Shown here: positions 843 through 64,000 of the stretch, piece by piece
Layout: each line of letters starts with the position of its first letter
How positions within the stretch are numbered: the stretch's first letter is position 1
Source of the DNA: Amphiscolops sp. MND2022
Taxonomy: Eukaryota
NCBI GenBank assembly: GCA_964187785.1
Contig: OZ076409.1
Span: forward strand, 34,474,001-34,538,000
DNA length: 64,000 bases
Direction: 5' to 3'
Notes under the pieces: generated by a model
What the model saw: only the letters and a program-made list of their open reading frames with translations
Databases searched by the model: none
Told to the model about the DNA's origin: nothing
Translations under genes and position numbers: made by a program

Positions 843-928
843 ATTATGAAATGTTTCCAGTTTATTGTTTTCTTTCAGATCAATTTTATTATCTTGAAAA
901 CTTTTCCAGTGTTGTTAACAAATGTCAT

Positions 929-2549: not shown

Positions 2550-3434
2550 ATGAAGTGTTCAATTTGTAGTCACAGAATTATAAACTTGATTTGTTTTGAT
2601 TGTGTTATTAAAAAACAAAGTCAAGAGTGTAATACTTTAAAAGTAGATTGTTTTCAAACAAAAAGGTAAGGATCTGTAAAGTAAGTGTATTGGTATTTTT
2701 AAAGAAAATAAAAAATGAGTCTTGTAACGCAAATTTCAATAAAACATATTTATCAAAACAAAAAACACAAATATAAAACTATAATTGATGTGAACAAAAT
2801 TGATTGCAATAAATTGATACAATTGATGATACGAATTATACTAATGCATTGAATAGAACATCAACAAACGGTCCTTCATTTTGTGGTAAGACATTTTTGC
2901 TATCAAACGAATTGAAATTATTACGCTTGGATAACCACGCACAACACTTAAAAATAATAACTAGATCTCTGGGGCGATACGAAAACATACAACTAGATGA
3001 AGTTTCGGTGGAAGAAGATTTAGAAAATAGAACAATTCAAATTTTTCAAAATAATGGTGTTGTGTTTGATTATATGTTGAATATTAAAAAAATTAAAAGG
3101 CCTTTTTTACCAGAAGAAGACATAATGATTTGAAGGTTTGTTATTTATCACAATCACAATTGGACTTACCTAAAAGAACAATTAGAAACAAGAGTAACAT
3201 TATAATTTTATCTCAACAAACATAGAAAGATGTACAACATGTATACAGAAATATTGCAGGTTTTGAAAGGTCTTACGATGAGTTTCGAAGTTTGTGCAGG
3301 GAGGCATGGAAAGAAAATGATCACTATAAAATAATAAAAAGGCTAGAAGATAAAAAATGAAAGAAAATAAAAAATCTGTAATGTATCTAGTGAATATTAT
3401 AAAATCTTCAATCCGCAAACGGATCCTTTCTGAA
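2550..3434 (+). pseudogene. Polinton packaging ATPase remnant
   Basis: GPSFCGKT Walker A, IITRS, VVFD and FNPQTDP match the 374-aa ORF 54355-55479. The presumed start at 2550 is in an ATAAATG context. Confidence 0.85.
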
Positions 3435-3689
3435 TTGAAAAAATATCTAATATGCTTTTCATTTTTTTGAATATATAACAATTTCCTCTTTTATTTCTTC
3501 TTTGAATTCATCTAAGTCTTTGTACAGTTTCATTCCTAGTTGTTCAAAACAGTTCCAAATAAAGTCTGATACTCTTGTCAGCATTGATTCAGTTTGAAAA
3601 TTTTCTTTTCCCTATTTTGAGTTTATTATTTCAAATCAATTATTTAAAAACTATTTTCAAACATGAACAATCTTTTATTTAAAGCTGGA

Positions 3690-4527
3690 ACAATTTTTGG
3701 TGTTGATTTGTTGTAATACATTCATATTCTATAGGTTTATCAGCAATTGCTATGATTTTTTCTTTGAGCTGAGGATTATCATTCCTCCTACTTTTTTCAG
3801 TAAAACATGATGGATCGATGAGCTCATCGGATCACATGGAGGAAAGACACATCGGACGTCGTCAGTTTTGTGGGGTAAATCACTTCCAAGTTGGAGTTGA
3901 CATATTTTTATATTTAAACTATATCTATTTGATATCTTATCTCCGAAAGGCAGATTGTCTTCAGATCATTTGAAAAATTGAAAATTGAAGGAAAGTATTG
4001 TTTTTCTCTCTCATTTTATCAATTGGTAAATTAGGTAATAATACGAACGATCCGGATTGTTCAAATCGTATGTGTTACCATTGCTTAGGTATGTTAGTTT
4101 TGATCCTTTGATTAGTACTTCTTGAGGATTTGTAGGGTTAATTGTGAATAAATTTGAACTTCCTTCAAAACTTTCTGAACTGAATTGTTTTTTGTTTTTG
4201 TCATTTAGAAGGTTGGAAACTGTCACAACGATAGAAGAATCTACTTGGGTGGAATAAAGAAGGTTGGTAAGATGTTGATTATTGCGGGTGGTTATTTCAT
4301 CATATTCTTGTACTCCTTTTTTCTTTAATTTTTGTAAATTTTTGTTCAAAACCTTACTAGTTTGTTTCGACTCTGATTTTCAGTAACTTCTTCAAAAACT
4401 TCTTCCATATCATAATGGAAATCTTGCTTCCCAAATTTTTCTTTTTATCGTTCCGTTTTCAAAAAAGGTTTTGTTTCTTGCATTATTACAATTCTTCCGA
4501 ATCATCACGATTATGAATAGAAAACAT
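3690..4527 (-). pseudogene. Remnant of the conserved 353-aa Polinton protein
   Basis: GVQEYDEITTRNNQ..QVDSSIV.TVSNLLNDKNK is nearly identical to ORF 53305-54366. Confidence 0.85.
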
Positions 4528-4659
4528 TTAATAGTCTTTAGTTTTGAATTGAGATATTAATTTAATTTGAATTTCATGAAAAGGTCTGATGATTTGTTTC
4601 AAATGAAAAATTATTTTATTCTATTCAAAGTTCATCAACATGTCTATGGTTTTTTTTCC

Positions 4660-5200
4660 AATTATGTACCCTTCCCTTGATTAACAAATGTTTTAATTTC
4701 AGCAGCAGTTGCAGCAGTAAGTTTTGGACTTTTACTCGCTGCTGCAGTCCTAAAAATTGCAGCTAAATATAAAGCTCTTCCGGGATTCCATATCCTGGAG
4801 GAGCAATTAAGTTGAAAGAAAATAGTCTTTGTTCTCTATTTCCATTAGCAATTGAGCCATCAACACAGTCACATTTCAGATGACCTTTGTCTATTGACGT
4901 TTTCATAACTGGTGATTCTGATTTATGAGTTTTTTCTGAGTAGTGTGTGTTTGTAAATCCTAGGACTTTGTTAAGTTTTGAATTTAAACGATTGGGGTTT
5001 GAGGTTGTTAGAGCTAATATCATTGATACAGTATCTCCGTGTAATTCAAATTGAAAACAAGAATCAGTAAATTTATGTTTCATAGTTCTAAACATATCAA
5101 CTAGTACGTATTCTCCTGGTGTTAACTCTATTTCAAAGAAATCACTTCAATTACAAAGGCAGGAATGTTTAGAAAACTTTGTTGTTGGTTTTTGTTACTG
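4660..5200 (-). pseudogene. Penton remnant joined by deletion to a remnant of the 173-aa pVI-like gene
   Basis: HLKCDCVDGSIANG.REQ.LFSFNL.APPGY runs directly into sequence matching RALEIAANIGTAAASKNP..AATA..QGKG. Confidence 0.75.
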
Positions 5201-5499
5201 GGTTGTCGATTAAAAGCTTCAATTATTTTCTTTTTGTTGGTCAAAAGCTTTTCTATTAAGATTCTTTTTTAATACCTATCAGTCATAAAAGTATTGGGTT
5301 TCTCTACAAATTTGTTATCTTCAAACCCACTAGGCGCAATTTTATCTATAAAATCGTTTGTATATTTTGTTAATTCATTTTTTGTTTTTTGTTTGATTTT
5401 GATTAGAATGTGGTTGTTGTTGTTGTTGTTCCGGGGATAAGATTCCAAATTGAGCGGAAATTTTTTTGTTCTAATTCATAAATAAAAAACCTTCATGAT

Positions 5500-5947
5500 A
5501 ATGTCTGATGGTATAAATTTAGACCTGCATTTTTGAAGTCTGTCATTGGTGTAAAAGATAAAACATAGTTGTAGCATCAAACAAAAGGAGGTGCAATAAG
5601 TGTCGTTATTCCACTTTCATATTCTGAGTAACTACAGCTATTAATTTGATTCATTGGATTTATTGAAGCTGGACAGCTATATGAATCAAATGAAAGCAAT
5701 GAAGCAAAATGAAGCTATATGAAAACTCATCAACAAACATAACTCAGTGTGTTCCTGTAGTTGGATGGTGTTAACTATGCCACTATTAGTGTTGAAAGGA
5801 TCATCTCTCATGTATATTCCAGCTGAAATACCTAATTCATTGGGGATTTCTTTTGTTTTTACATTGGAAGTTGCATCTTCTTTTAATTCTTTCAGTTCTT
5901 CTTTGAATGATAAATATTTCACTTCTCAGTTGTTTTTTTCATGAACA
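5500..5947 (-). pseudogene. Adenain-like protease remnant
   Basis: YLSFK..ATSNVK.KEI.NELGI..GIYMRDD.FNT.SGIVN matches ORF 51049-51468. Confidence 0.85.
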
Positions 5948-48350: not shown

Positions 48351-50518
48351 TGTGTCATTTCACGTCACATTTTGAAAATTTAAAAGCGTCTCACCCTAAT
48401 TACCCAGTGAATAACTTTACTGCTTTACTGCCCTACTAAAAACCAACATTTCTGAAAGTTCTTTTATTTTTAAAAGGATTCTACTTCAATAAGTCGCATA
48501 GTGCCGGAAAAGCTAAAACTGACCATCTATGCTCTCAAGACGCTGTTGTTTTTGCTGAAAGTCAAAGGAGAGGGTTTAGGTTTGGAAGAAAATCCAGAAA
48601 AAGTCGCATAATGTCGAAAATTTTCTAAAGGGGGTCTTTGGTATCCCCTTATTTTTGCAAACATGAAACTTTTCTTCTTCAGTGCGAGAGTCGAACCCAC
48701 GTAATTTTCCTTCTTTCCTTCTTTGGCCGGGAAAAATCCGTGTTAACCACCAGTCAAAGTCCAAGTCCAAATGTCGATGAAAAGTTACTTGAGAAGTTGA
48801 AGCACGTTTGGTAAAACCACTTTGGACAAATTAGGTGTATCGAAAAAATCTGACGGAAAACCATGACTATAGTCGCTCTTTTCTACAAAAAAACACCAAC
48901 TGAAAAACGGAACCTGTAATGAGTTTGCCTAAATTCGCACCATCTTTTACAAATGAACGTGAAGTGAATCTCCTCACAGCAAGCTGAAAATGGTCAAGGA
49001 ACTGTCCGTTTTGGGCTGTGGGTCCCTGTGACTTTGTAAAGGCAAGTAGTGACAGATCGCTTGACGCGGCAACAGAGATGGAGGAACCTGCAACGAACGG
49101 CATTACGCCCGGTGCTGGCACATATCCGCAACAGATCCATTTTACCATATGGGTGTCGCGCCCGGAAGGTCCCAATGTCGCGCCTCAAAAAGGAAGCTCT
49201 CCGACCGGTCCCAATTTGTAACTGTTGTTAGTAACGGGCATCTTCCTTTTGTCTTTTCAGGAACAGTTTACACAGCCTTTAAAAACGTTCCAAGAATAAT
49301 CAGTATAGTTTTCGTCTTTCAGGGTGACATGGGAACAACGTTTAAAATTGCAAAAAGTGGCCCGAGAGCTAGAAAATACAGCTAATAAAAGTACATAGAA
49401 GCACGCATCGAATCTGCAGACCACACAGCTACAAGTTAGCGCGCCAAGAACCGAAAAAGGAACCTTAGGCAAAAAGACTCGTTTTTCCGGTTTTCACCAT
49501 TTAGGATAGTATAATGCCAAAATGAATAAAAAAAGGGTGTTTGCTCATAGAAAAGAGCTTTTCAAAGGCTTTCACAATCTCTACAGGCTCTCAAGTTATC
49601 TCGTTTTCGGTGTTCCTACTCTGTCTGCTCTCGTGCTCGTTCTCTTTTCAAAATGGTGAAAACCGCGAAAAGAGCAATCCCATGCTTGGTGCCACGTCAC
49701 ATATCGGATTAGAATTTTTCACCAAACTTCTTCCTATTTTAATTTCGACTGATTGTGTATCAAAGGGTGCATTTACACTTGCTCAAGGTCTGTTCCTTCT
49801 AGATATTTTTCTAGTTTAATGCAAACATTTTTTTCATCTGATTAGAAATATTAACGTTGAACTTCTTGTAGTCAACTAACGAACTGAAATGTTTTGCAAA
49901 ACAAAAAATACAGGGACCTTCATGGAACATTTGTGCAAAATTTCCATGCAGCTTGGAAAAGTTTGCAAGATTTCCAGCCTTGAAAAAAGTGTTTGAGAGC
50001 CCATAGAGCTTGAAAAATTTTCAAAAAAATTGCTTCATTCCATTAATTAAACGCTGAAAATGCAATAAATGCAACAATGTTCCACCCTCAACCTTGACCA
50101 TTTACAGAAACGAGTGTTTTCTTTATTCTGAATACTAAATCTAGATCAGCTCAATTAAAAAATTGTTTTGCTAAAAAATCCTTGAAAACACACAATCGCA
50201 TATGTCAAGAGATTTACGATCACATCAAATTGATCAACATTGAAATCATTCTTTTCATCACATTTGCAAACAGAATTTAGGAGAAAAACAAGCGAATAAA
50301 GGCGAAACAGGCTAGAAAAGCCAATAGTAGAGAGAAGAGCAGAATACAGAGCAGGTTGCAGGGACGATGACAAAGTAGTATGGGAAATCCCGATACGGGC
50401 CACAAAAACCCCAAAAATTAAAAGTCCTCAAAACCATTGATTTTAAGCACTTTTTAGAAAACAAATCATCAAAAATAGTGTTTTTACCATGAAGCAAAAA
50501 TTCACTAACCTCTATGAT

Positions 50519-50674
50519 GCGCGAAGCTACGCGCGAAGCTACGCAATGTGTAATAATAACACGTTGCTGTACAGCCAGCATTAATGCACAACCAACGTTA
50601 ATGTACAACCAGCATTAATGCACAACCAACGTTAATGTACAGCCAACGTTAACGTGCAACCAACGTTAATGTAC
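50519..50674. repeat. Short tandem repeats in the probable left terminal region
   Basis: GCGCGAAGCTAC x2; ~32-bp unit CAGCATTAATGCACAACCAACGTTAATGTAC(A) x2-3. Confidence 0.8.
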
Positions 50675-50719
50675 CGGCGCATACATTATTCTTATATAAC
50701 TACAACTAACACATTTTTG

Positions 50720-50965
50720 TCTCCCATAGCTTAGTGGTTATAGCATTGACTAAAGTTAAGGCTTCGGCCGGAGTGTTTGGGGTTCACTTCTATCCAACGT
50801 CCCCCAGTCTTTGTTACAACTTACATGCTATGGGAGAATAATCACCAATGGCACAGTTCTTAAAAAGGATAATCCCTGCTGTGGAAACTCTTAGTGGAAC
50901 GGACTCCCGATGGGCTTTGAGTTTACCATAGGCATGTCAATACCAATGGCATGCCTATGGGTTTT
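50720..50965 (+). ncRNA. Predicted tRNA-like / Pol III-type structured RNA cassette
   Basis: TATATAA at 50693; A-box/D-arm TAGCTTAGTGGTTATAGC; cUUCGg hairpin; B-box-like GGTTCACTTC; 11-bp closing stem 50720-50730/50827-50837; 14-bp hairpin 50926-50960 followed by TTTT. Confidence 0.55.
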
Positions 50966-51048
50966 GTATTTTTACCACATGGGAAATAATTTTAACCACG
51001 CACAGCTTCACACAACATTAATACACAACAATGAAAAATAACTAATAA

Positions 51049-51468
51049 ATGGAACAGCTTCACAATTACCTCTCATTCAAAGATTTTGTTGAAAAATATG
51101 GATTAAAAAACGAAGCAACTTCCAATGTAAAAATAAAAGAAATACTTAATGAATTAAATATTCCATGTGGAATATACATGAGAGATGATAAGTTTAACAC
51201 TACCAGTGGTATAGTTAACTTACATCCCTCAGTGGGAACACATTGGGTTATGTTTACAAATCAAAATTATTTTGATTCATATGGCTGCCCACCCCCAACT
51301 AATATACTTAATCATATTAAAAATGGTATTTATTCAGAATATCAAATTCAGACCAACGACAGTTATTGCGCGGCGTATTGTTTATACACACTGTATCTCA
51401 CAAATAAAATTGGGTTCAAAAATGCAGTACTAAATTTATACTACCAAACTTTCAAACTTAATAAATGA
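51049..51468 (+). CDS. Adenain-like cysteine (virion maturation) protease
   Basis: GTHWV (His), YFDSYG (Asp), QIQ...YCAAYC (Gln/Cys) in adenain order. Confidence 0.9.
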   Translation: MEQLHNYLSFKDFVEKYGLKNEATSNVKIKEILNELNIPCGIYMRDDKFNTTSGIVNLHPSVGTHWVMFTNQNYFDSYGCPPPTNILNHIKNGIYSEYQIQTNDSYCAAYCLYTLYLTNKIGFKNAVLNLYYQTFKLNK

Positions 51469-51677
51469 AGAAAATTAATAATTATTCAACTCAATATAAA
51501 ATTATCTCGCGCAGCTTCGCGCCAGCTCTCGCGCACAGCTCCGCAGAACAGCTTCACAATCAAAATCAAAATCATGGAAAAAATTCATCGAAGCCGCATA
51601 AGAAAACATTATCAAAAGATAGGCAAGAATTTATAAATAACATTTCCGCTAGTGGATTCAAACAATTTAATCTATAA
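51465..51677 (+). CDS. Small basic hypothetical Polinton protein
   Basis: Starts in the same ATAAATG context as every other Polinton ORF and fills the gap between protease and penton. Confidence 0.6.
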   Translation: MKKINNYSTQYKIISRSFAPALAHSSAEQLHNQNQNHGKNSSKPHKKTLSKDRQEFINNISASGFKQFNL

Positions 51678-51713
51678 TGCGGAGCTGAGAAAAAAGGATT
51701 TTTTTCCTAATAA

Positions 51714-52727
51714 ATGGATCTATCAAGCTTCGTAACATATGATAAAAAAGAATCTCTTCTTTTAAGTATTGCAAAATCTAATCAAGAAATTGTTGAAAAT
51801 ACTCATTCTAAACCACAAGAAACTCTAGAATTTAAAATGACTAAACAAAAAGAATCTTTCTCATTTGATGTTCCATTACTACTGCCTGAAAAATGGATGA
51901 TGGGAGTAACAAGCCTAGAAGTATACAACACTGTATATAACATTACTGAAAAGAATAACAAACTTGAAATTCTTCTAACAAAACAACAACTCGAAGAGTA
52001 TAGAGTTGACACTGAATTAGTGCCAAAAATAAAGGATTTGTATGAAACATCTGATGATAAATTTATAGAAAAAACTAATACACTTATAACTTATAGTTAT
52101 ACTAAAAAGAAGAAAAAACTTACTAGAAAAGACTTTAACCAACTCAAGAAATTAATTGAAGTTTTTAACTATCCTGATCAACAAATACATATTCCTGACT
52201 TTGAAATTGAACATGATTCCTTTGGAATACAACTAACACCAGGAGCATATGAATTAGTTGATATCAATGCTTCCGTAAAACAAATAATTAATGAAAGTGA
52301 TTATGATTTTAAATTCAACATAATACCCGACACAATATCAATGAAATCAGTTTTAACAACCTCAAATCCTATTCATTTTAACTCCGAACTTAACAAAGTC
52401 CTGTGTTTTACACAACGTGATTACCCATCCGGAACTCACACTTCAGAAAAACCAGTCATGATAACAACCACCGACAAAGTTCATCTGAAGTGCGACTGTG
52501 TAGATGGTTCAATTGTTAATGGTATACGAGAGCAAATTTTATTTTCTTTCAATTTAAGCGCACCTCCCGGATATAAAATTATAAAAGAACCCACAACTGT
52601 TTTGTACAAATCAATTAACAAAACACGACTGGACACCATCCAATTTTTCCTTGAGGACTCTAATCATGATTCAGTTGATTTCAACGGGGAGACACTCACC
52701 TTCACAATTCAAATTATCAAAATATGA
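51714..52727 (+). CDS. Minor capsid protein (penton-like)
   Basis: C-terminal beta-rich motif LKCDCVDGSIVNG...FSF...PGYKII.EP...Y...LED...VDFNGE as in Polinton minor capsid proteins (recognised by eye). Confidence 0.7.
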   Translation: MDLSSFVTYDKKESLLLSIAKSNQEIVENTHSKPQETLEFKMTKQKESFSFDVPLLLPEKWMMGVTSLEVYNTVYNITEKNNKLEILLTKQQLEEYRVDTELVPKIKDLYETSDDKFIEKTNTLITYSYTKKKKKLTRKDFNQLKKLIEVFNYPDQQIHIPDFEIEHDSFGIQLTPGAYELVDINASVKQIINESDYDFKFNIIPDTISMKSVLTTSNPIHFNSELNKVLCFTQRDYPSGTHTSEKPVMITTTDKVHLKCDCVDGSIVNGIREQILFSFNLSAPPGYKIIKEPTTVLYKSINKTRLDTIQFFLEDSNHDSVDFNGETLTFTIQIIKI

Positions 52728-52756
52728 TAGGATTTAATACAATTTTTTTCTAATAA

Positions 52757-53278
52757 ATGAGTTATAATAAATTTATAAATAATTCATATTGTGTTGGCGG
52801 AAAACATTATTCTCCCACCACAAATGTTCATGGAGAAATTACAAACACTGGGATACAGATGGGCAGGCCCGTACACACATTACGTGGCAACTGTGTAGTG
52901 TGTAACAGAAATAAGAGTCTAATTGTATCTGAACGAACAATAGAGGGGGAAGGATTGGGAGACTTCTTTAAACATTTAGGTTCTGCAGCCAAAAATGTTG
53001 GAAAGAAAATACTCAATAACCCAGCAAGAGCTCTAGAAATAGCAGCAAATATTGGAACTGCAGCAGCAAGTAAAAATCCACGATTAATTGCCGCAACTGC
53101 CCCCGATGTTATTAAATTTGTTCATCAAGGGAAGGGCCTATACAAAGCTGAAGCATTGTCGAGTAAAGGCGGAAGCTATCGCAGCAAAGCAGGTAACACA
53201 AGCAGCAGCAAAACAAGCAACACAAACCGAAAAGCAAGAACTAATGGTAAAGGCCTGTATCTGGGGAAAATCCACTAG
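52757..53278 (+). CDS. Basic virion core / pVI-like protein
   Basis: N-terminal Cys motif (YC..H...CVVC), then IEGE|G followed by amphipathic GLGDFFKHLGSAAKNVGKKIL. Confidence 0.6.
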   Translation: MSYNKFINNSYCVGGKHYSPTTNVHGEITNTGIQMGRPVHTLRGNCVVCNRNKSLIVSERTIEGEGLGDFFKHLGSAAKNVGKKILNNPARALEIAANIGTAAASKNPRLIAATAPDVIKFVHQGKGLYKAEALSSKGGSYRSKAGNTSSSKTSNTNRKARTNGKGLYLGKIH

Positions 53279-53304
53279 TTATATGCATTAATTATACTTA
53301 ATAA

Positions 53305-54366
53305 ATGTATTCAATTCACACCCGAGATGACTTGGAAAAATTAAAAAAATTACAAGAAACAAAATCCTTAATTTTTAAAGAAAGATTAAAAGAGAAACTA
53401 GGGAAACAAGACTTTCATTATGACCTTGAAGAAGTTTTTGAACCTGTTACTACAAAGCAGGTAGAATCAAATGAAAAACAAATACAAGCACTACATGATT
53501 CTACCCGCGAAGCTTCGCGCGCAGCTTCACAAACAGTACAAGCAATAAAAAATCAAACACAGGCTATTCGAGAATCGAGTAACGCTTTGAATAAAAATTT
53601 ACAGAAATCAATTAAAGAAGGAATACAAGAATATGATGAAATTACGAATCGTAATAATCAGCTTCTTACGAGTCTTGTTACTTCCAATCAAGTTGATTCT
53701 AGTATTGTAAAAACAGTTTCTAATTTACTTAATGACAAAAACAAAAGCCAATTTAGTTTAGAACCATTTATACAAGACTATCCAAATATATTCATAATTA
53801 ATCCCCATAACCCACAACAAGTACTAATCAAAGGTTCAACAATGACTTTCGAGAATGGGAATTCATACAATTTAAATGATCCAGATCTTCAACATTTTAT
53901 AACTAATACACAATTTGACAAACAAATAAATAACTGGGGTCCAATTTATAACTTCTTAAATGATATGAAATATGATCTAAATTATGGAGATAAAAAATCA
54001 TACAGATATCAATTTATTAAAGAATTGTATAAATATATGCAGGGCTTCACTCAAGGCTATGCGGGGAGCTCTGCGACAGCTAACGCGACAGCTAACGCGA
54101 CAACTCCCACACAGGACTACACACAGGGCTTCACAGGAAGTGGATTGCGCGATAGCTATCGCAAATATTCACAACAGTACATTTTCCTCCCATCTGACCC
54201 AGACGAATTAGTGGATAAATTGAAATTACTTTATTTTGAAAAAGTTGGAGGAAATGATAGTTTTCTGATTAATGAACAAATTATTGCAATTATAGACAAG
54301 TTATTGGAGTATGAATGCATATCACCTTCTCAACACCAAAATATACAAAGCAACTTAATTACTTAA
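53305..54366 (+). CDS. Conserved Polinton hypothetical protein (coiled-coil)
   Basis: Coiled-coil N-half; C-terminal LPSDPDELVDKLKLL...GGND...EQIIAIIDKL motif typical of Polinton proteins; also present in the relic. Confidence 0.8.
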   Translation: MYSIHTRDDLEKLKKLQETKSLIFKERLKEKLGKQDFHYDLEEVFEPVTTKQVESNEKQIQALHDSTREASRAASQTVQAIKNQTQAIRESSNALNKNLQKSIKEGIQEYDEITNRNNQLLTSLVTSNQVDSSIVKTVSNLLNDKNKSQFSLEPFIQDYPNIFIINPHNPQQVLIKGSTMTFENGNSYNLNDPDLQHFITNTQFDKQINNWGPIYNFLNDMKYDLNYGDKKSYRYQFIKELYKYMQGFTQGYAGSSATANATANATTPTQDYTQGFTGSGLRDSYRKYSQQYIFLPSDPDELVDKLKLLYFEKVGGNDSFLINEQIIAIIDKLLEYECISPSQHQNIQSNLIT

Positions 54367-55479
54367 AGGATCAGTTTGTGGATTAAAGATCTTGTAATTT
54401 GGATTAGATTCATTACAAATCCTGTACCTACTCCCATTTTTATCTTCCAATCTGTTTATTAAAAGGTAGTTGAATTTTTCGTTCCATGCTTCTCTACACA
54501 AACTTTTGAATTCCTCATAAGACATATCAAAACCTGATATGTCCCTATGAATATGTTCTACATCTTTCAGTGTTTGTTGAAATAAAATTATGATATTACT
54601 ATTGTTTCTAACTGTCTTTTTTGGTGCATCAAAATAACTCTGACATAAATAATAAACATCACAAGATTTGTGTCTTCCCCTAGTAAAAAATGGATCAATC
54701 AATTTCTGGTTGGAGTCTAACATATCATCAAATACTACACAACATCCCCTATACTCTTCCAAATCCCCCACATTTTCTTCCACACTTACACCACCAATAT
54801 CATTGCGTAGCTCCACATCCTCATATTGTTCCGGACTCCTTGTAATGATACGAATTTGTTTCTCTGGATCTTCCAAACGAATCAATCGTAATTTATTCAA
54901 CAACAAATGAGTCTTACCACAAAATGATGGGCCAACTATTAATGTTCTATTAGTTTCGTTCGCGTTAGCTCCCGCATTATCATCATTAGCGATAGCTTTC
55001 GCGTTAGCTCCCGCAGGGCTATTCACGAAGCTCTGCACACCGTTATTAGCATTAGCTCCCGCGTTAGCACCCACATTATTATTATTATTACTGTGTGAAG
55101 GGGTGCCTCGCGAATAGCCATGCGGGAACTCCCGCTGTAGCTCTCGTGATAGCTGTTGCGAATAGCCATGCGGAAGTAAATCATACAGAGCCCCGCCCCC
55201 AGTATGCTGATTATAATTATATTGTTGATTATACTGTTGATTATAGTGTTGTTTTTTAATGTGTGACCTTAAATAACTTTTATTTAATTCCTTATTACAA
55301 AATTCACACCTCACCTTTTTATTAAAACACACTTTGCATGAAGAGTACGTTCTGCCATTTTTGTATGAATAAAAAGTATTACAATTCTTCAAAGTTTCAC
55401 AGTCTTTACATCTTTTTTTACTAGAGCAATCATCACATAAACTTTTTTCACTACTTTTATTACAAATTAAGCAATTCAT
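54355..55479 (-). CDS. A32/FtsK-like DNA packaging ATPase with N-terminal Cys-rich zinc domain
   Basis: Walker A GPSFCGKT, Walker B VVFDD, RGRH, R.N; multiple CxxC pairs at the N-terminus. Confidence 0.9.
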   Translation of the reverse strand: MNCLICNKSSEKSLCDDCSSKKRCKDCETLKNCNTFYSYKNGRTYSSCKVCFNKKVRCEFCNKELNKSYLRSHIKKQHYNQQYNQQYNYNQHTGGGALYDLLPHGYSQQLSRELQREFPHGYSRGTPSHSNNNNNVGANAGANANNGVQSFVNSPAGANAKAIANDDNAGANANETNRTLIVGPSFCGKTHLLLNKLRLIRLEDPEKQIRIITRSPEQYEDVELRNDIGGVSVEENVGDLEEYRGCCVVFDDMLDSNQKLIDPFFTRGRHKSCDVYYLCQSYFDAPKKTVRNNSNIIILFQQTLKDVEHIHRDISGFDMSYEEFKSLCREAWNEKFNYLLINRLEDKNGSRYRICNESNPNYKIFNPQTDPLSN

Positions 55480-55499
55480 TTATTTAGTATTATTTAGTA

Positions 55500-55896
55500 A
55501 AAAATCACTAAAGTTTCACTAAAGTTTCACTAAATACCTCTCAGTATCACTATGTAATCACTAAGGTTTCACTAAGCAAATTTCACTAAATCACTAAGAA
55601 TCTCTAAGAATCTCTAAGAATCTCTAAGAGTATTTTATTTCTCTAAGATTAGAGAATATAGTGAAATTTAGTGAAAATAATGCTCTTAGTGAAACCTTAG
55701 TGATTTAGTGAGAAATTTAGAGAAATTTAGAGATCACTAAATAATCACTAAGGTTCCACTAAATAATCACTAATCACTAAATAATCACTAAATAATCACT
55801 AAATAATCACTAAATAATCACTAAATAATCACTTAACATTATTTACGAAGTTCCTACGAAGTTCCTACGAAGTTCCTACGAAGTTCCTACGAAGTT
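55500..55896. repeat. CACTAA/TTAGTG-based direct and inverted repeat region plus (GAAGTTCCTAC)n
   Basis: Perfect 20-bp inverted repeat 55557-55576/55685-55704; AAATAATCACT tandem; GAAGTTCCTAC x4-5. Confidence 0.9.
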
Positions 55897-57110
55897 CATA
55901 GCTTATTTTTAGTAAAACTTTTTGCATGCTCATAAATTAAGTTCTTGAAGCTCTCTTTAACTGAGTCACTAATTAGTGGTTTTTGCATACGCTCAACGTA
56001 GTTGTCTATTTTGGATTCATTCACTTTAATGTTATTTTGTTTGCAATAGGCTACATAATAATAAGCTATGTTGTGTGGTGTTATTTCAATTGTTTGGTCG
56101 GACATTGCCTCTAAGAATATCTTCAATTTGTTGTAATCATCACCAGTGAAAAAGTAACTTTCATAAGCAACGAGTTGTTCTGGACCCCACTCACTTCGTT
56201 TGCTCGAATCATAAATTAACTTGTACTTGTTGTTTAGAATCTTGTATTTATGACTCCTTGTGTCCAGTTCAATAATACCAAATTCTAACTGATCGCGGTA
56301 GTATTTCCAATTAAGCCCATTAACTGCGTCAGCTTTCGCGGAAGCTAACCCATAAGTTTGTACTATCGACTCGAAGAAGTTATCTGGGTTATTAATTGTT
56401 AAGTATATTTTGAAACAATTTTCCCTCACGACTGGAAGAACATCCTTTGCATAGTGAGCAAGGTATATCACTTGAATCCCCAAGTGTCTACCATATCTAA
56501 ATAAGTCTTCTACTTTTGTTTTAAGAGTTTTGTATGCACCTGCATCATCCAGTACAACAATTTTATTAGCAAGTAATTCAATACTAACCTTCTCCAACTG
56601 CAGTAGTGGTACAAAATTTTGAGAGGGAAACTCACATTCATCTCGCCCAAAAACTACGTAAGTTCTTTGATTTCGGGCGTGAGCTGTCGCTAAATAATGC
56701 TTTAAAAAACTTGTCTTCCCAGAGCCACTACTACCATAAATTATGAAGTGGGAATTATTGTGTGGGGATGCTTCGCGGGATTCTTCAATTGTATCCTGGG
56801 GGACTTCTCTTTCCTGGTTTGTCAGATGAGAGTATTTGAACCCTTCAAATTGTTGTAGTTTTTTATAAATTTTTTTAAAGGACATGGGGCGAATATAATT
56901 CCAATATATTACAACAATAATACCTATAAATATAATTAAATATGCAATAAACATAGGATTTGTGATTACTTTATAAAGTTGTGTTTTCTGATACCAATAC
57001 AGTTTGTTGGCTCCTGCGGTAGCTCCATCGGCTCCCGCGCCGTCTCCTGCGCCAGCTCCTTCACCTTGATAATTATTTCTATAGCTCTGCAAGCAATAAT
57101 CATTATTCAT
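55896..57110 (-). CDS. Second A32-like ATPase with N-terminal transmembrane helix
   Basis: MFIAYLIIFIGIIVVIYW; GSSGSGKT; VVLDD; RYGRH; VREN. Confidence 0.85.
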   Translation of the reverse strand: MNNDYCLQSYRNNYQGEGAGAGDGAGADGATAGANKLYWYQKTQLYKVITNPMFIAYLIIFIGIIVVIYWNYIRPMSFKKIYKKLQQFEGFKYSHLTNQEREVPQDTIEESREASPHNNSHFIIYGSSGSGKTSFLKHYLATAHARNQRTYVVFGRDECEFPSQNFVPLLQLEKVSIELLANKIVVLDDAGAYKTLKTKVEDLFRYGRHLGIQVIYLAHYAKDVLPVVRENCFKIYLTINNPDNFFESIVQTYGLASAKADAVNGLNWKYYRDQLEFGIIELDTRSHKYKILNNKYKLIYDSSKRSEWGPEQLVAYESYFFTGDDYNKLKIFLEAMSDQTIEITPHNIAYYYVAYCKQNNIKVNESKIDNYVERMQKPLISDSVKESFKNLIYEHAKSFTKNKL

Positions 57111-57144
57111 TTATTTATAAAAAATTGTTATAAAACTATAATAA

Positions 57145-58047
57145 ATGAATCAAAAAAAGAAAGAAATTGTTAAAGAAATCTTCTCTCCTGTAATTAAGAA
57201 GTTTCAAAGAATTCAAATACAAACTCACTATAAAGATGAATGTTGGAGTATTGATCTAATTGATCGCTCAAGTTTAAGCAAATACAACAAAAACTACAAG
57301 TTTATTTTCACAATAATTGACAACCATACTAAATATGCATGGGCGATTCCCCTCAAAGATAAATCAGGAAAAAGTACGACTACTGCATTAAAAAGTCTCA
57401 TTGAAAAAGAGAAGAGAAAACCACACAAAATTTGGAGTGATAGAGGTAAAGAGTTTTACAACACAACATTTTTACACTATTTAAAAGAGCAAAACATTCA
57501 AATTTATTCAACTAATTCAGATTTAAAAGCTGTTTTTGTTGAACGTTTCAATAGAACACTTCTGGACTTAATCAAAGAACCGATGTATATTGAGGGTAAA
57601 GGTAACTGGTTGAATCACCTTGATGCTGCTTTGGATAAGTATAATAATAGGGTGCATGGTACAACAAAAATGACACCATTTGAAGCCAGTAATAACAGTT
57701 TACTTCCTAGCAATAATAATAATAACAATAAAGTTCCGCGCGATAGCTACCGCGATAGCTACCGCAGCTTCGCGCAAAGCTTCGCCAAATTCCAAGTGGG
57801 AGATTTTGTAAGAGTTCCTGACAAAAGGAACATTTATTCAAAAGGTTATACAACAAATTGGAACAGAGAACTTTTTAAAATACACAGCATCAACAAAACA
57901 AACCCAGTAACATACACTTTAAATGATGAAAACGGAGATATTATTCAAGGAAAATATTATGAACAAGAACTTTTAAGAAGCATATTCGACTTTGACTCTA
58001 ACAACAAAACTTTAGAAAGTATGAATATTTTCCACAAATTTGAGTAA
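57145..58047 (+). CDS. Retroviral-like (rve) DDE integrase
   Basis: WSIDLID, IIDNHTKYAWAIPLK, WSDRGKEF, VERFNRT. Confidence 0.95.
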   Translation: MNQKKKEIVKEIFSPVIKKFQRIQIQTHYKDECWSIDLIDRSSLSKYNKNYKFIFTIIDNHTKYAWAIPLKDKSGKSTTTALKSLIEKEKRKPHKIWSDRGKEFYNTTFLHYLKEQNIQIYSTNSDLKAVFVERFNRTLLDLIKEPMYIEGKGNWLNHLDAALDKYNNRVHGTTKMTPFEASNNSLLPSNNNNNNKVPRDSYRDSYRSFAQSFAKFQVGDFVRVPDKRNIYSKGYTTNWNRELFKIHSINKTNPVTYTLNDENGDIIQGKYYEQELLRSIFDFDSNNKTLESMNIFHKFE

Positions 58048-58126
58048 TTTGCGGAGCTTTCGCGGAGCTTTCACAGGGCTTTCGCGGAGCTTCCGCGATA
58101 GCTTTCGCAATAATTTTTTATTATAA

Positions 58127-59389
58127 ATGAGCGCAGCTTTGCACACAGATATGTTTTCTTTAAAAAATAAATACACTCTTGAAAAACCTATTCATAAAAT
58201 TAATTTTATAAAGTATAATCCTAGTAGTTTAGCGACAATTAACAATACAAACTCCAGTATTTCAATTAGTTTGCCAAGAGAAGATGCATACATATGTTTA
58301 CAAAATAGTTTCATAAGTCTAGAATTTGAAGTACTTAAAAACAATAATACAAGATATGCTGATGGTGATGAAATAAGCCTCGTTAACTTTGGACCAATCT
58401 CTCTATTTAGTGAAGCCAAATTAACAACAAGTTCGGGGAAACACCTAGAAAAAGTTGACAATTTGCACTTGATTTCTTTAATGTATAAACTTCTGACAAG
58501 CACTAAATCCACAAGTGAGTTGTTGTATGGGTTTGAAGAAAGTACTAGTGTCAGAAGACAAGAACTAACAAACAACAAAAATGAGAAAGGAACCTTTTTT
58601 GTGAGAATAAAACTAAAAGATTTGTTTGGATTTGCTGATCAAGAAAAAATAACTTATGGGTTGGGCTACACATTAACTCTCAAACGGAACACTAACAATG
58701 ATGCGATTTTAAGAAGTGTTGGAGTGGATGCTGCAAAAGTGGTTATTAAAGACATTGGTTGGTATATTCCACACTATGTTCCATCACTGGAAAACCAACA
58801 ATTTGTCATGGACCAAATTTTAAATAAAGATCCAACCGAAATATTTTTCACAGAACGAATTATTTTTAGAAAAGATGTTAACACAAATTCGAATTGGACA
58901 TTTGAATTAGGCAGCGCGGGCGGAAATAGCAACAATGAGTCCTGTCCAACTTTTGTGATTGTTGGATTTCAAGCTAGAAATAAAATTGATTCTCAGGTTC
59001 ATGACAACTCTGTATTTGACCGGTTGCCAATTAGTAATGCTGTTTGTAAAATAGGATCAGAAAAATATCCCGATGATGGAATAGAATGTGACTACGACCG
59101 CGACAAATATGATCAAGCATACAGTGAAATAGAAAACTTCTATCACTTACATTCTGAAACTCATCTGCTCAATCCCTTCATTGATTTGCACAAATTCAGA
59201 ACAAAATACCCCCTATTTGTATTTGACCTCAGCAAACAAAAAGACCAAATAGCTTCTCAACCAATCCGTTTAGAATTTAAATTTAATGCTGCCATTGATG
59301 TAGCAAATTTTGTGGCTTATGCACTTGTATTAACCCCAAAACTAATAAGTATTAGTAGTGATGGGCAAAGGCATTTTGATTTAATATAA
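58127..59389 (+). CDS. Major capsid protein (double jelly-roll, predicted)
   Basis: 420 aa, beta-rich, P.FVIVGFQ, YP, LFVFDLSKQ pattern and Polinton context; fold not verified. Confidence 0.75.
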   Translation: MSAALHTDMFSLKNKYTLEKPIHKINFIKYNPSSLATINNTNSSISISLPREDAYICLQNSFISLEFEVLKNNNTRYADGDEISLVNFGPISLFSEAKLTTSSGKHLEKVDNLHLISLMYKLLTSTKSTSELLYGFEESTSVRRQELTNNKNEKGTFFVRIKLKDLFGFADQEKITYGLGYTLTLKRNTNNDAILRSVGVDAAKVVIKDIGWYIPHYVPSLENQQFVMDQILNKDPTEIFFTERIIFRKDVNTNSNWTFELGSAGGNSNNESCPTFVIVGFQARNKIDSQVHDNSVFDRLPISNAVCKIGSEKYPDDGIECDYDRDKYDQAYSEIENFYHLHSETHLLNPFIDLHKFRTKYPLFVFDLSKQKDQIASQPIRLEFKFNAAIDVANFVAYALVLTPKLISISSDGQRHFDLI

Positions 59390-59583
59390 TATTATAATAA
59401 TGTGATAACTAACGTGCTAATAATGCTAATAATGCTAATAATGCTAATAATGATGATAATAATGTTATGTTAATGTTATGTTAATGATATTGATAATAGT
59501 GTTATAATAAATGATAAATATAATTAGCTTCGCATAGCTTCGCGTAGCTTCGCGTAGCTTCGCGCAATCATAAGAGATGTGGG

Positions 59584-62500
59584 TCACAATAAATGGGCTC
59601 GATCACTTATCAGATTTAAAAGGTCTTGATGATTCAATTTTTCTTTCAGAGTCCAAATGTTATAGTATATTTCTTCATCTGTTTTATTTGCTGTTAATTC
59701 TTTATAATACAAGCCAACTAATTTTATACAAAGTATACAAGGACAATCACCTTTTTGTGTGTGTTTATCCCATGATAAACTTTGTATTGGATTCAAGTAC
59801 ATACGCTTGTCATCAAAAGGATTCAAAGCTAGCTTATCTTGTTTCTGAACAGTTAAGTTGTGAGCATTACTTCTAATAGAATAATTAGTTGCAGTTGTTG
59901 TTTCAGAGTTAAATAATGAATTTATAAATTGTGAATAAATTGGTGTATGTTGTATTCCTTTTTGTTTTGATTTTTGAATTGTTCTTTGCTTTGCCTCTTG
60001 CGTTAGCTTTTGTGCTGAGCCATAGCTAAAAGAATATGATTTAGATCTCAAAGCTACGAAGTTGTCTAATTCAATAATTGGTGATGTTTCTATTTTCATT
60101 TTACCTATAACTTTCTTGTTGATTGAGTTGTACAACTCATGACTTGGGTCGAGCTCGCTGAAATCAAAATCATCTTTGAAGTACTCCAAATCATTTATAA
60201 GGTCTCCAGTTTTAATACTTAGAATGAATGAGTCTGTATCCATGTAATGCAGTTTAACATTCGAACTGTAGTATGGTTGTAATTTGTGATAATAAAACTC
60301 ATACATTAACAATTTACTCAGTTCTAAAACACTAAACCCCAAGTATATTGGTTTATCAAAAATTACTTTTTCCTTATCAAACTTGTAAGCACTGAATTCG
60401 GAGTAATGATTAGTGATTCCTTTAAAGCTTAACTTCGATTGTCTTTTTATTATTTGATCAATATTGGTGTGGGGGATAAACTCTAAATTAGTCCGTTCTC
60501 TAACATTTTCCATAGTCTTGCCAAAGAAAGCGTTGTTCATTAATTTGTACAAATCCTTCTCAAAGTTTGTTTTTGCTTTGGTGCGTTTTTGTGTGTTATG
60601 ATTAATGTATTTTTCTAACCAAAGTGATTGTTTGAACCGGTAGATTGTGTGAATCTTTGTTACTTTCATTCCAATCTGTGTGTAAAACTTGAACATCCTG
60701 TAGTGCATCATATAATTATATTTGTTTGTTAGGTCACACATAAGTTTCTCGGTTGGTTTGTAGTTGGGTTGCTTTACACTGTTCATGTATTCTGAGAAAA
60801 GATTTGGATCGGCTTTTGTTTGATAAGGACAAAGTGGAAAGTTTTCGGTTTTTTCTTTAATTTCTGCTGGATATTCTAAATCACATTCTATAAAGTATCC
60901 ATATTCATTATTGTCTGGAATAAATCTCAAATCTTCTACTATTTGTTCTATTTGCGTAGCTTCGCGCGTAGCTCCGCCGTACCCTTGTGATAAATCTAGT
61001 TTTTCGAATTCACTTGTAGGAAGGTATTGACTCATTGCCCATCCATACAAGTTATTTGCATCAATGTACAGTAATTTAGTATTTTCATTTGACTCAATGA
61101 ATCTGGGTCCCATTACACTTGAAATTCCTCCGCGAATATTATTTTCAAGTAGTAATAATAACTGTTTGTCTTTTATGAAATCTAATTTAATTTTAGTAAG
61201 TTTTAAACCAGCTTTCCATGTATAACCAGGTAAAGAGTAACTGTACAACGGATTGATGCCGTACATAAGAGTGCTTGTTTCAACAAAGTTTTCGAACACG
61301 TCAGTGAGTTGTAGTACATCCATTTTTAAATATAACATTGTTAATTCTTGTGCTGTTGTAATGTTGTAAGTGTCAATCAATTGTTGGGTTCTTTTTATAT
61401 CATCCTCGCATGGGTAAGATTGATTCAGTGTTGACCAATAGTCCTCTTTTGTTAGATTTAGATTTAGTGGTTCATGCAGGTTGTTAAGATTGAATTTTTC
61501 GTATGGATAAGCTAGTTTTTTCTTAAATAAATCATCAGTTAGGCCCTCGTTTTGCATATAAGGAAAATCATTTAATGATGTTATAAGTTTTTGTAGACTA
61601 CTACTCAAAAATCTGTATGAATCTAAAAACCTTAAACAACCTACTTGCACACTTACATAATTTTCCATTGACTTTGGGATTATTTTTGGTTCACACCCCA
61701 TTTTGTAAGCTTGTGTTAAGAGTTTTTCAAAAATTAAATGACAATCATAACCACTGAAATTATGGAAAAAGATAGGAACAAACGAACTTGACTTTTTTTT
61801 ACAATTTAAATTACATTTGTTGTGGGCTGCTCCTCGGTACTTGCCTGTAAGATGATCATGATCTCGAACTTTATCATTATCGAGTGGATTTTCACAAAGC
61901 CAACACACTTTGGATTGTTGAAATGATTCTTCTTCTTCGGGGGTTATTTCAAGAGGTAAATTTGTTTCAAAATAGTTACTAGCAATGTTTTCTAGAGTCA
62001 ACATTTCATTTACAAACCATGTTACACACGGTTCACCAAAGTATGAGCTGTAATTATTACCAAATGGTGAAATTATATAAAACCCTACTGCAATTGGAAT
62101 TTGTTTAAATAATACTTTGGGCGCAGCTTCGCGGTCACCTGTTGGTTGATTAATACATTCAAAATCTGCATATACTCTTATTGGTACGGGAACTTTCATA
62201 TGATAATCTTCGAACTTTAAGTGATCCTTCCAACTGAATGTGATATTAGTTGGTTGTTGTTTTATACATCTTTCTATATGATCAAGTAGAACTGGTTGTG
62301 AACTAAATGTAGTTAGGCATCTTCTACACACCCATTTCATGTGCGAATCTTTATTTAATAAACAATGCAGTTTTGTTATTAAACAATAGTGATTTTGATA
62401 CAGCATTAAATCTATTTGTGGTTGATCATAGTTTGTGTTAATATGAATTGGTGTTAAAACTGTTTTTGTGAGTTCAAATACATTTACGTTTAAATTATTT

Positions 62501-63426
62501 AAGTTTTCAAACTTGGGAATATCTTTAATTTTCATGGGGAATTCTAAACCATTTGAAATGAGTTTGTTCAGATTCATTGAATAACTTGATGTTCTATTTT
62601 TATGATCCTCAACGGGAAAAAGGTGTGCTAGGATACACCATAAAAAACAATATTGATCATCATTTTTTATATTTATAATTGATTTATTATTCTTATATTT
62701 TTCTGGCAACTCAACCCATGAAGAAGCTTGAATATCATTGACTTTATATACCTCCATTATAACATTGACAATACCGTTTAACACAAAACCTGATCCTTCT
62801 AATTGTTCATCATCTAATTTCTGCATTAATATGTTGTGAATATTTGGGTTTGTGCCGAAGGCAGTCTGTGTGTGATTGTAATTAAAATCTGATTTAACCC
62901 ATTTGTGAAATACGTTTTCTTCTCCATTAACTATTTTTGAAAACTTAGCTAAATAACTCAATTGGAACTTGTATCGGGGAAAGAAGCTAGTTTTTAGTAA
63001 ATCATTAATCTGTTCTTCAAGATGATTTGTTGGATTTACTCTCAGTTTAATGTATGTTTTTTCATTCACAATTATTTCTACACCAGTTCCTACGTTAGTT
63101 CCTACGTTAGTTCCTACTCCATGTAGTGTATTGTTTATAGCATTATTCTGACTTCTTAACGTGTGAATTTCACTTTGAAAATGTCTTGAATTACTTATAT
63201 ATTTACCACAATCTTCACACCAAATTTGTGTAGCTTCGCGTTGTTGTTTGGTTTTGTTTTTATGTTCATCTGAATTCAGATGATTAGACTTGTCAGACAA
63301 TGGCATAAATGTATTACATTTTTTACAATAATATTGATTTAATTTTTGTAAATGTTTTATTGATTTTAGATGATCGGACTTGTAAGCTTTTTTATAATCA
63401 GAATTACAAATACTGCAGTTCTCCAT
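59584..63426 (-). CDS. polB: Protein-primed family B DNA polymerase with N-terminal zinc fingers
   Basis: YADFE, FHNFSGYD, YIDANNLYG, KLMNNAFFGK, YMDTDS; endonuclease-VII-like insert CWLC..RDHDH.TGKYRGAAH..CN. Confidence 0.97.
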   Translation of the reverse strand: MENCSICNSDYKKAYKSDHLKSIKHLQKLNQYYCKKCNTFMPLSDKSNHLNSDEHKNKTKQQREATQIWCEDCGKYISNSRHFQSEIHTLRSQNNAINNTLHGVGTNVGTNVGTGVEIIVNEKTYIKLRVNPTNHLEEQINDLLKTSFFPRYKFQLSYLAKFSKIVNGEENVFHKWVKSDFNYNHTQTAFGTNPNIHNILMQKLDDEQLEGSGFVLNGIVNVIMEVYKVNDIQASSWVELPEKYKNNKSIINIKNDDQYCFLWCILAHLFPVEDHKNRTSSYSMNLNKLISNGLEFPMKIKDIPKFENLNNLNVNVFELTKTVLTPIHINTNYDQPQIDLMLYQNHYCLITKLHCLLNKDSHMKWVCRRCLTTFSSQPVLLDHIERCIKQQPTNITFSWKDHLKFEDYHMKVPVPIRVYADFECINQPTGDREAAPKVLFKQIPIAVGFYIISPFGNNYSSYFGEPCVTWFVNEMLTLENIASNYFETNLPLEITPEEEESFQQSKVCWLCENPLDNDKVRDHDHLTGKYRGAAHNKCNLNCKKKSSSFVPIFFHNFSGYDCHLIFEKLLTQAYKMGCEPKIIPKSMENYVSVQVGCLRFLDSYRFLSSSLQKLITSLNDFPYMQNEGLTDDLFKKKLAYPYEKFNLNNLHEPLNLNLTKEDYWSTLNQSYPCEDDIKRTQQLIDTYNITTAQELTMLYLKMDVLQLTDVFENFVETSTLMYGINPLYSYSLPGYTWKAGLKLTKIKLDFIKDKQLLLLLENNIRGGISSVMGPRFIESNENTKLLYIDANNLYGWAMSQYLPTSEFEKLDLSQGYGGATREATQIEQIVEDLRFIPDNNEYGYFIECDLEYPAEIKEKTENFPLCPYQTKADPNLFSEYMNSVKQPNYKPTEKLMCDLTNKYNYMMHYRMFKFYTQIGMKVTKIHTIYRFKQSLWLEKYINHNTQKRTKAKTNFEKDLYKLMNNAFFGKTMENVRERTNLEFIPHTNIDQIIKRQSKLSFKGITNHYSEFSAYKFDKEKVIFDKPIYLGFSVLELSKLLMYEFYYHKLQPYYSSNVKLHYMDTDSFILSIKTGDLINDLEYFKDDFDFSELDPSHELYNSINKKVIGKMKIETSPIIELDNFVALRSKSYSFSYGSAQKLTQEAKQRTIQKSKQKGIQHTPIYSQFINSLFNSETTTATNYSIRSNAHNLTVQKQDKLALNPFDDKRMYLNPIQSLSWDKHTQKGDCPCILCIKLVGLYYKELTANKTDEEIYYNIWTLKEKLNHQDLLNLISDRAHLL

Positions 63427-63548
63427 TTATTTATAATAAATTTATGAATTTAATGGCAGCATATTTTGTGTAGCTTCGCAATAGTATATTTTTCAATTAT
63501 TAGTGTTAATTTTTATTTTATTTTTTATGTTAAAATTGAATAAATTAA

Positions 63549-64000
63549 TTATAAAAAATTGTGTGGTTTAAGTGGTATTGTTGGTGGTGTGTGTGAAGCT
63601 ACTTGTGATTTTGTATGCGAAGCTGTGATTTTGTGTGATTTTGTGTGAATTTCCTGTGAAGCTGTGTTAGCTGTCGCGTTAGCTGTCGCGTTAGCTGTTG
63701 CGTTAGCTGTTGCGTTAGCTGTCGCCTGATAATATTCAAATTGAGTCACAAATCGATGATATTCTTTTTCATCTATACAGTTGTCTTTTAGGCTAGTGAC
63801 ATAAAGTTGTCTAAAGTCGTCAAGAGTCTTCTGAATAATAGTGTACTTAAGTTTATAATTTTGCTCCTTTTTCTTCAAATAACTAGAACAAATCTTAACA
63901 AGGATACCAGTTGTACAACCAACTCCTGCAGCGATTGGAACAACTATAATACCCACACCAGTAATACTTAGTGAGATTGATGCTGAAGTTGTTCCAATCA
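63549..64000 (-). CDS. Hydrophobic/TM Polinton protein, 5' end outside the window
   Basis: Frame stays open to the window edge (IGTTSASISLSITGVGIIVVPIAAGVG); homologous remnant at 929-1200. Confidence 0.75.
   Translation of the reverse strand, partial: IGTTSASISLSITGVGIIVVPIAAGVGCTTGILVKICSSYLKKKEQNYKLKYTIIQKTLDDFRQLYVTSLKDNCIDEKEYHRFVTQFEYYQATANATANATANATANATANTASQEIHTKSHKITASHTKSQVASHTPPTIPLKPHNFL

Follow-up and report, generated by a model that had tools for sequence, protein, structure and literature searches.

In a 64,000-nucleotide stretch of Amphiscolops sp. MND2022 DNA (contig OZ076409.1, positions 34,474,001 to 34,538,000; hereafter the window), we found a Polinton that runs past the window, is complete at 15,334 bp and has 12 genes, all of which begin with the same motif, TAAATG, overlapping the start codon; a T-rich triplet commonly lies ten bases further upstream. 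Both parts correspond to the late promoter of poxviruses. Judged from the DNA sequence, the genes probably carry individual two-part promoters that would be read by the late machinery of a pox-like helper virus and not by host RNA polymerase (Pol) II. The finding bears on the expression of animal Polintons and on their status as satellites or autonomous viruses. A single genome was found to hold two kinds of Polinton, families A and B with per-gene promoters of the poxvirus late type and family C with host-like starts, which provided a built-in control.

An earlier sequence-only reading of the window had proposed ATAA-ATG at ten starts (51049, 51465, 51714, 52757, 53305, 57145 and 58127 on the plus strand; 55479, 57110 and 63426 on the minus strand), and each of these reads ATAA-ATG. 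The T6-7 runs that it had placed at 51699-51705, 52743-52749 and 58114-58119, and on the minus strand before 57110, are also present. Its statement that all open reading frames (ORFs) carry the motif was true of the non-nested genes and not of three shadow ORFs inside the interval, at 53106 (61 amino acids (aa)), 53984 (75 aa) and 59577 (99 aa), which lack the motif and either lie within real genes or run antisense to them. Both genes past the window end (236 and 270 aa, in the adjacent stretch L031), which lay outside the original sample, begin TTAATAA-ATG (2/2). Across the complete element, ATAA was found before 12/12 gene starts but, among the 535 remaining ATGs, before only 6 (Fisher p 1.4e-20). 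Dinucleotide-matched simulations placed ATAA at 1.6% of the first ATGs of ORFs of at least 30 aa, a figure that allows for the bias towards a stop codon before ATG; outside the element, the window has it at 2/244. The core common to the families was TAAATG, not ATAAATG, and TAAAT overlaps the start codon, as in poxvirus late promoters, at 12/12 starts. A degraded relic of a related Polinton, with pieces of the protease, penton, 173-, 353-, 236- and 270-aa genes, an ATPase and the integrase, keeps the motif as had been claimed: ATAAATG lies at 2546 and minus-strand TAAATG at 4527, the latter being the start homologous to that of the 353-aa gene. The claim that the tyrosine-recombinase (YR) ORF does without the motif was also borne out, as neither the 748-aa YR-like ORF nor the 729-aa reverse transcriptase ORF uses it.

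When 44 starts from the window element, B1 and B2 were aligned on TAAAT, a T-rich triplet was found centred exactly 10 bases before it, with T at -11, -10 and -9 in 34, 36 and 35 starts against an upstream T background of 0.33, while positions -12 and -8 were at background. At 45 TAAATG sites of these elements that are not starts, the corresponding counts were 21, 15 and 14; in the window alone they were 8, 9 and 8 of the 12 starts. The triplet was the only conserved upstream block at element starts. This peak was found before it was compared with the published vaccinia late consensus, in which TAAAT(G) lies over the start codon and a conserved T stands at the tenth base upstream, flanked by Ts (PMC11980589). 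The same arrangement, a T 10 bases upstream flanked by Ts, is present in the Polinton. Both in vaccinia and in yeast plasmids derived from Polintons, 5' poly(A) leaders arise by slippage on TAAAT (PMC12722222, PMC6211774); TAAATG also occurs in salmon gill poxvirus (PMC4542343), and the late initiator of African swine fever virus is TATA, not TAAAT (PMC7163114).

For the host, starts were inferred as the nearest in-frame ATG in unannotated Ras-family, tubulin and histone genes and counted by hand (n = 48); the exon held no ATG at 16 of the 14 + 40 Ras/tubulin places, one further place was ambiguous, and two tubulin/histone duplicates were removed. A purine occupied -3 in 39/48 host starts, TAA-ATG was present in two and ATAA-ATG in one, and neither of the two TAA-ATG starts had the T-triplet at -11 to -9. 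All 12 element starts have T at -3, the base disfavoured by the host. The earlier reading was to fall if TAAATG were the host's common start context; with 2/48 host starts it is not, and the host Kozak context was rejected as the source of the motif.

Wnt genes show the host to be an animal. The genome assembly searched comprised 1.07 Gb and gave 2,854 first-look capsid candidates, of which the best 100, which were scored, were 93-100% identical. Twenty further copies were taken via capsid and pPolB searches, and starts were counted at non-nested ORFs of at least 100 aa. In family A, TAAATG was found at 27/45 ORFs, with 11/11 in the window and the other three copies fragmented; in close capsid copies it was retained in 30/30, although their N-termini were variable. 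Family B of the same genome is deeply diverged from the window element (capsid ~42%, integrase ~36% identical), has all genes on a single strand in a different order and bears extra fibre and HNH genes. It showed the motif at 56/75 ORFs, or at 64/75 if TAAAT up to two bases before ATG was allowed, and this displacement makes a transcription initiator a better fit than a translation context. The motif was also present on the HNH genes and on 52-aa ORFs of family B. Family C (pPolB ~30% identical, 41% G+C) gave 0/115. Outside this genome, TAAATG was found at 6/133 ORFs of 14 IMG/VR loci and 7/241 of 80 metagenome loci, together 13/374. In the viral contig collection, capsid, integrase, family B and L252 polymerase queries returned no related loci, and neither did two alignment queries, one of which also gave nothing in the metagenome contigs; only the window polymerase was productive. 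The motif is lineage-specific, being conserved across deeply diverged sister families and absent from other Polintons. Its retention in 30/30 capsid copies, in diverged families and on mobile HNH genes points to ongoing selection.

In a quick pPolB tree of 61 rows, from which C_233 and L270 were left out for low coverage and which had a midpoint root and the Shimodaira-Hasegawa-like approximate likelihood ratio test (SH-aLRT) as sole support, A, B, L251, L252 and L253 formed one clade with an SH-aLRT of 99, apart from C. The metagenome contig L252 showed TAAATG with TTT at -11 to -9 in 2/2 long genes; L251 and L253 had no intact polymerase start to score. The TTT-N8-TAAATG promoter type therefore extends beyond this genome. 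The L252 contig is very AT-rich (21% G+C), and its region 361-6465 encodes a 1336-aa pPolB of the A/B clade and a 697-aa zinc-finger protein, both starting with TTT-N8-TAAATG. Family C (L231-L250) is a third, GC-richer Polinton group with host-like start contexts and with a 1481-aa ORF in L233/L234. The HNH/endonuclease VII-like genes of family B carry zinc fingers and vary in position (L167 7005-7565, L168 621-1262, L170 4098-4691), several of them starting TAAAT-ATG, not TAAATG. These mobile genes may be shared with a helper virus; searches for HNH and capsid homologues returned unnamed proteins only and no pointer to a helper. A 459-aa fibre-like protein of family B (L168 1664-3040; two copies in L163) gave tail-fibre repeat matches and a C-terminal MAM-like domain (E 9e-4).

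We propose that the element is a young, complete Polinton in which each gene would form its own monocistronic unit, with the T-rich triplet 10 bases upstream and the TAAAT initiator overlapping the start codon. These promoters would be read by a pox-like large DNA virus through its post-replicative (late) machinery, or by a related polymerase of the cytoplasm. RNA synthesis would begin within the AAA, and by slippage the transcripts would gain a 5' poly(A) leader, with A in place of the unfavourable U at -3. All 12 genes would be switched on together, integrated copies would stay largely silent until a helper infects the cell, as mavirus does with Cafeteria roenbergensis virus (CroV), and the rve integrase would put new copies back into the chromosome. 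The proposal predicts sharply that 5' ends lie in the AAA and bear poly(A) leaders, in infected cells only. The sequence-only reading had noted that no RNA polymerase is visible, and this holds for the complete element, as sequence searches of its 12 proteins found neither an RNA polymerase nor a known transcription factor. Its suggestion of helper-activated transcription stood in part: the geometry of the motif matches the vaccinia late consensus, whereas searches of the genome assembly found no helper genes.

Several results weigh against a helper-driven promoter. RPB2 domains were found in the assembly only at three intron-bearing loci, which read as Pol I, II and III, and family-B polymerases only as four host types (alpha, delta, epsilon and zeta-like). 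Searches of the genome for VLTF3 (5 candidates), Capsid_NCLDV (2) and Pox_Rif/D13 (0) gave no match, a weak negative given that the controls were mute too, and a literature search turned up no poxvirus from this kind of host. A helper need not integrate, so absence from the genome neither supports nor excludes one. The copy number is very high and activity recent, so that a helper would need to infect germline or stem cells often. T at -10 is missing at 3/12 window starts, those of the integrase and protease included, and the significance of the T peak is overstated because orthologous B1 and B2 starts are not independent. TAAAT is a short AT-rich word, and it is not depleted within A/B coding sequence (242 versus 249).

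Word usage gave a weak indication of non-nuclear transcription in A/B, with further points on the other side. AATAAA occurred at 2.78 per kb in A/B coding sequence, 0.44 in family C and 0.53 in host exons, and long genes free of it numbered 0/20, 10/19 and 15/19, respectively. No set departed from synonymous shuffles, so the A/B excess follows base composition. For one set of donor-like 5-mers, depletion was seen in C (0.74) and in the host (0.78, with an antisense control of 0.83), while A/B showed none (1.04), but a stricter GTAAG+GTGAG donor test did not separate the sets (0.90, 0.84, 0.79), and splice acceptor words did not discriminate between them. TTTTTNT was slightly low in the window (4 versus 8.2), in family B (3 versus 7.9) and in IMG/VR genes, though not in a diverged A copy (9 versus 8.7).

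The alternative that survives best, which we hold to be unlikely, is that host Pol II reads a clade-specific, TATA-less initiator through a host factor to make near-leaderless mRNAs; the element would then be autonomous and its likeness to poxviruses a convergence. The exact match of the -10 T to the vaccinia late logo would in that case be a coincidence, and the supposed initiator would be one that neither host genes (2/48) nor family C (0/115) use. A/B genes also carry AATAAA at 2.8 per kb, which speaks against Pol II. On the other side, the high copy number, recent activity and identical terminal inverted repeats (TIRs) are most simply accounted for if no helper is needed, the genome searches turned up no helper genes, and transcription in animal tissues is documented for some adintoviruses (PMC8502044). 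As a specific host factor, YY1 was considered and rejected. Its AAATGG-type consensus fits only 4/12 starts.

It is improbable that a specificity factor encoded by the element steers a host or packaged polymerase to TTT-N8-TAAAT, since the nine genes common to A and B all have homologues in motif-less IMG/VR relatives and no product is big enough for a multisubunit RNA polymerase. Candidates for such a factor would be the unassigned 70-, 270- and 353-aa proteins, the zinc fingers on ATPase 1 and a 171-aa family B protein with an N-terminal CxxC pair, for which 1/18 aligned members matched the TFIIB zinc ribbon weakly (E 0.025). The 171-aa protein, however, matched nothing in the window or L031 set, and family B gave no match to the 270-aa protein; the predicted folds of the 270- and 171-aa proteins were poor (pLDDT 48.5 and 39.9).

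We consider it very improbable that the motif is a signal for translation or RNA processing, either for stop-start reinitiation on polycistronic RNA or, as AATAAA, for polyadenylation or a read-through block of the upstream gene. A TAA does stand in frame immediately before ATG, AATAAA is contained in 11/12 window starts, the start at 51465 overlaps a stop as ATGA, and at the 236-aa gene a stop lies one codon before the start. An upstream ORF, however, ends at only 1/12 starts, and on this count stop-start coupling was rejected. First genes beside the TIRs carry the motif too, as do the two partners of a divergent gene pair, and the fixed T-triplet one helical turn upstream would be unexplained. 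The poly(A)-signal reading was rejected as well; family B often lacks AATAAA (TTAAATG, GTAAATG). Equally poor is the prospect that the motif is a vestige of a helper-dependent ancestor, persisting without present use: no helper was found and the motif is clade-wide, but it is kept in 30/30 close capsid copies with varying N-termini, across families at 36-51% protein identity with different spacers, and on variably placed mobile HNH genes. Trans-splicing was ruled out by the absence of an AG acceptor.

Like poxvirus late promoters (PMC11980589, PMC12722222, PMC4542343), the putative promoters of the Polinton place TAAAT(G) across the start codon, have a T at -10 between further Ts and AT-rich sequence upstream, and occasionally show TAAAT shortly before ATG. 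In the Polinton, they stand on all genes including polymerase and integrase, and no early class is evident. Described Polintons/Mavericks (adintoviruses; PMC8502044, PMC11161782, PMC10748475) share with this element the TIRs, a 6-bp target-site duplication (TSD), pPolB, rve integrase, packaging ATPase, a protease (here a probable one), double jelly-roll (DJR) capsid, a length of 15 kb and many integrated copies; they differ from it in that a TTT-N8-TAAATG-type start at every gene and two A32-like ATPases are found here. By term look-up, the word 'promoter' is absent from PMC8502044, PMC10748475 and PMC11161782. Our literature searches, with subscription journals mostly outside their coverage, found no description of a TAAATG motif in Polintons, and an earlier mention is possible.

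Mavirus and the type 4 endogenous mavirus-like elements (EMALEs) of Cafeteria burkhardae likewise integrate, encode pPolB and rve, lack RNA polymerase and share one large-virus late motif among their genes, the type 4 EMALEs bearing that of CroV (PMC8547959). The element described here differs in its animal host, its Polinton-type (PF21738) instead of virophage-type capsid and its TAAAT instead of TCTA, and its helper dependence is a proposal. Like virophages (Maveriviricetes), it has no RNA polymerase of its own; its capsid matched only PF21738 and not the virophage type, so that it would only work like a virophage and is filed as a Polinton. A promoter motif shared with a large virus is also carried by PgVV, the Phaeocystis globosa virus (PgV) virophage, which bears the PgV early motif (bioRxiv 2022.07.28.501842). 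Polinton-like viruses associated with entomopoxviruses were proposed as poxvirus hyperparasites in animals (Barth et al., PMC11296320), and AHEV_PLV1 encodes PolB, A32, a protease and a capsid that HHpred matched to PF21738 (PMC11296320 supplement). By their published description, these viruses lack rve and were found in occlusion bodies; our element has rve and falls outside the class. The terms promoter, TAAAT, transcription and motif are not mentioned in the main text of PMC11296320, nor are promoter and motif in its preprint. The yeast cytoplasmic linear plasmids pGKL1/2 (PMC6211774) are also Polinton-derived pPolB replicons, with TAAAN initiators, slippage poly(A) leaders and a pox-related RNA polymerase. 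Unlike this element, they encode that polymerase themselves, lack capsid and integrase, and use an element upstream that resembles the early promoter of poxviruses. Yeast cytoplasmic virus-like elements have their own RNA polymerase and no capsid genes, and the reverse was found here.

If helper-read promoters are confirmed, mavirus-type helper dependence would extend to integrated animal elements and a pox-like virus of this host would await discovery; start-codon motifs would also sort Polintons quickly into helper-dependent and autonomous ones and hint at the helper. It is possible, though doubtful, that these elements form a clade of germline-integrated, virophage-like animal Polintons which an undiscovered poxvirus-like virus activates through its late machinery and which curb that virus, as a heritable antiviral system of the mavirus type with the promoter as its footprint in the genome of the host. 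Antiviral defence by the element is speculation.

The Polinton starts at window position 50374, and its right end lies past the window in L031. Its 593-bp TIRs are 100% identical to each other and start with AGTAGT, giving the AG...CT ends of Polintons/Mavericks, and both ends are flanked by one and the same hexamer, a 6-bp TSD as expected for this group. Within the TIR, 17-bp tandem repeats and a 14-bp hairpin were observed (50551-50686 and 50926-50960). The element encodes pPolB, rve integrase, DJR major capsid and A32-like ATPase, as Polintons/Mavericks do, and five of its proteins are unassigned. The features are listed in Table 1.

Table 1. Features of the Polinton and of the related relic, in window positions
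Feature	Position	Strand	Remarks
TSD, left copy, 6 bp	50368..50373	.	right copy directly past right TIR in L031
Left TIR, 593 bp	50374..50966	+	matches right TIR at L031 2115-2707 (outside window); internal 17-bp tandem repeats
TAAATG + 139-aa ORF, probable adenain-like maturation protease	51046..51468	+	T absent at -10; no match in Pfam, PHROG or PDB
T-triplet/TAAATG + 70-aa ORF, function unassigned	51451..51677	+	ATG overlaps protease stop (ATGA)
T-run/TAAATG + 337-aa ORF, probable minor capsid (penton)	51699..52727	+	label inferred; no match in Pfam or PHROG
T-run/TAAATG + 173-aa ORF, zinc-ribbon-like N-terminal part, then amphipathic stretch	52743..53278	+	family B homologue: weak DUF5679, E 0.05
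T-rich/TAAATG + 353-aa ORF, conserved Polinton protein, function unassigned	53291..54366	+	also present in TAAATG-less relatives L183, L186
TAAATG + 374-aa A32-like packaging ATPase, N-terminal zinc fingers	54355..55493	-	Pox_A32 E 1.6e-4, below cut-off
T-run/TAAATG + 404-aa second A32-like ATPase	55896..57124	-	Pox_A32 (PF04665) E 1.7e-8
TAAATG + 300-aa rve integrase	57142..58047	+	rve (PF00665) E 3e-11; T absent at -10
T-run/TAAATG + 420-aa DJR major capsid protein	58113..59389	+	PF21738 E 7.5e-22
TAAATG + 1280-aa pPolB ORF	59584..63440	-	core 51% identical to family B enzyme (DNA_pol_B_2, E 9.5e-14)
3' part of 236-aa hydrophobic ORF	63549..64000	-	its TAAATG start, 270-aa ORF with TAAATG and right TIR in L031
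Degraded relic of related Polinton	1..5916	.	TAAATG at 2547-2552 (+) and 4530-4525 (-)

In a direct Pfam search, the 1280-aa window protein gave no polymerase match, only Endonuclease_7. The 139-aa ORF, which has no database match, is presumably a protease by its His, Asp and Gln-Cys motifs, and it is conserved in relatives, as is the 337-aa ORF, which has homologues in family B and among IMG/VR relatives. A 58-aa counterpart of the 70-aa ORF, with TAAATG, was present in one diverged copy, and the 353- and 270-aa proteins gave no usable atlas match. In the 173-aa protein (52757-53278 on the plus strand; L168 4317-4751), the DUF5679-like zinc ribbon is followed by a Gly-Glu-Gly site and then by a basic, amphipathic helix, which may resemble the membrane-lytic helix of adenovirus protein VI. 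The tandem A32-like ATPases (54355-57110 on the minus strand) are a feature of family A, as the B and C copies examined mostly have one; one ATPase of the pair carries N-terminal zinc fingers, and the other a hydrophobic stretch ahead of the P-loop. Repeats of 11 bp form an array between the two genes (55490-55900), in which several inverted pairs of 16-21 bp match perfectly, and the array is kept in diverged family A copies; an origin, a packaging signal or an RNA structure element is possible. The integrase and second ATPase genes are divergent, and the 34-bp gap between them contains two opposed TAAATG.

Short GC-rich repeats (GCTAACGCGACA-like and GCGCGAAGCT-like) were observed in frame in several genes and in spacers between 53500 and 63500, giving low-complexity peptides of the ANATA type. 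Elsewhere in the window, the intronless 748-aa ORF (21890-24136 on the plus strand) has C2H2-like fingers and gave no Pfam or PHROG match above noise; from its motifs, we assume its C-terminal half to be tyrosine-recombinase-like. A unit of ~1.4 kb is repeated four times in tandem at 35568-39811, with matching sites at 35568, 36971, 38374 and 39789.

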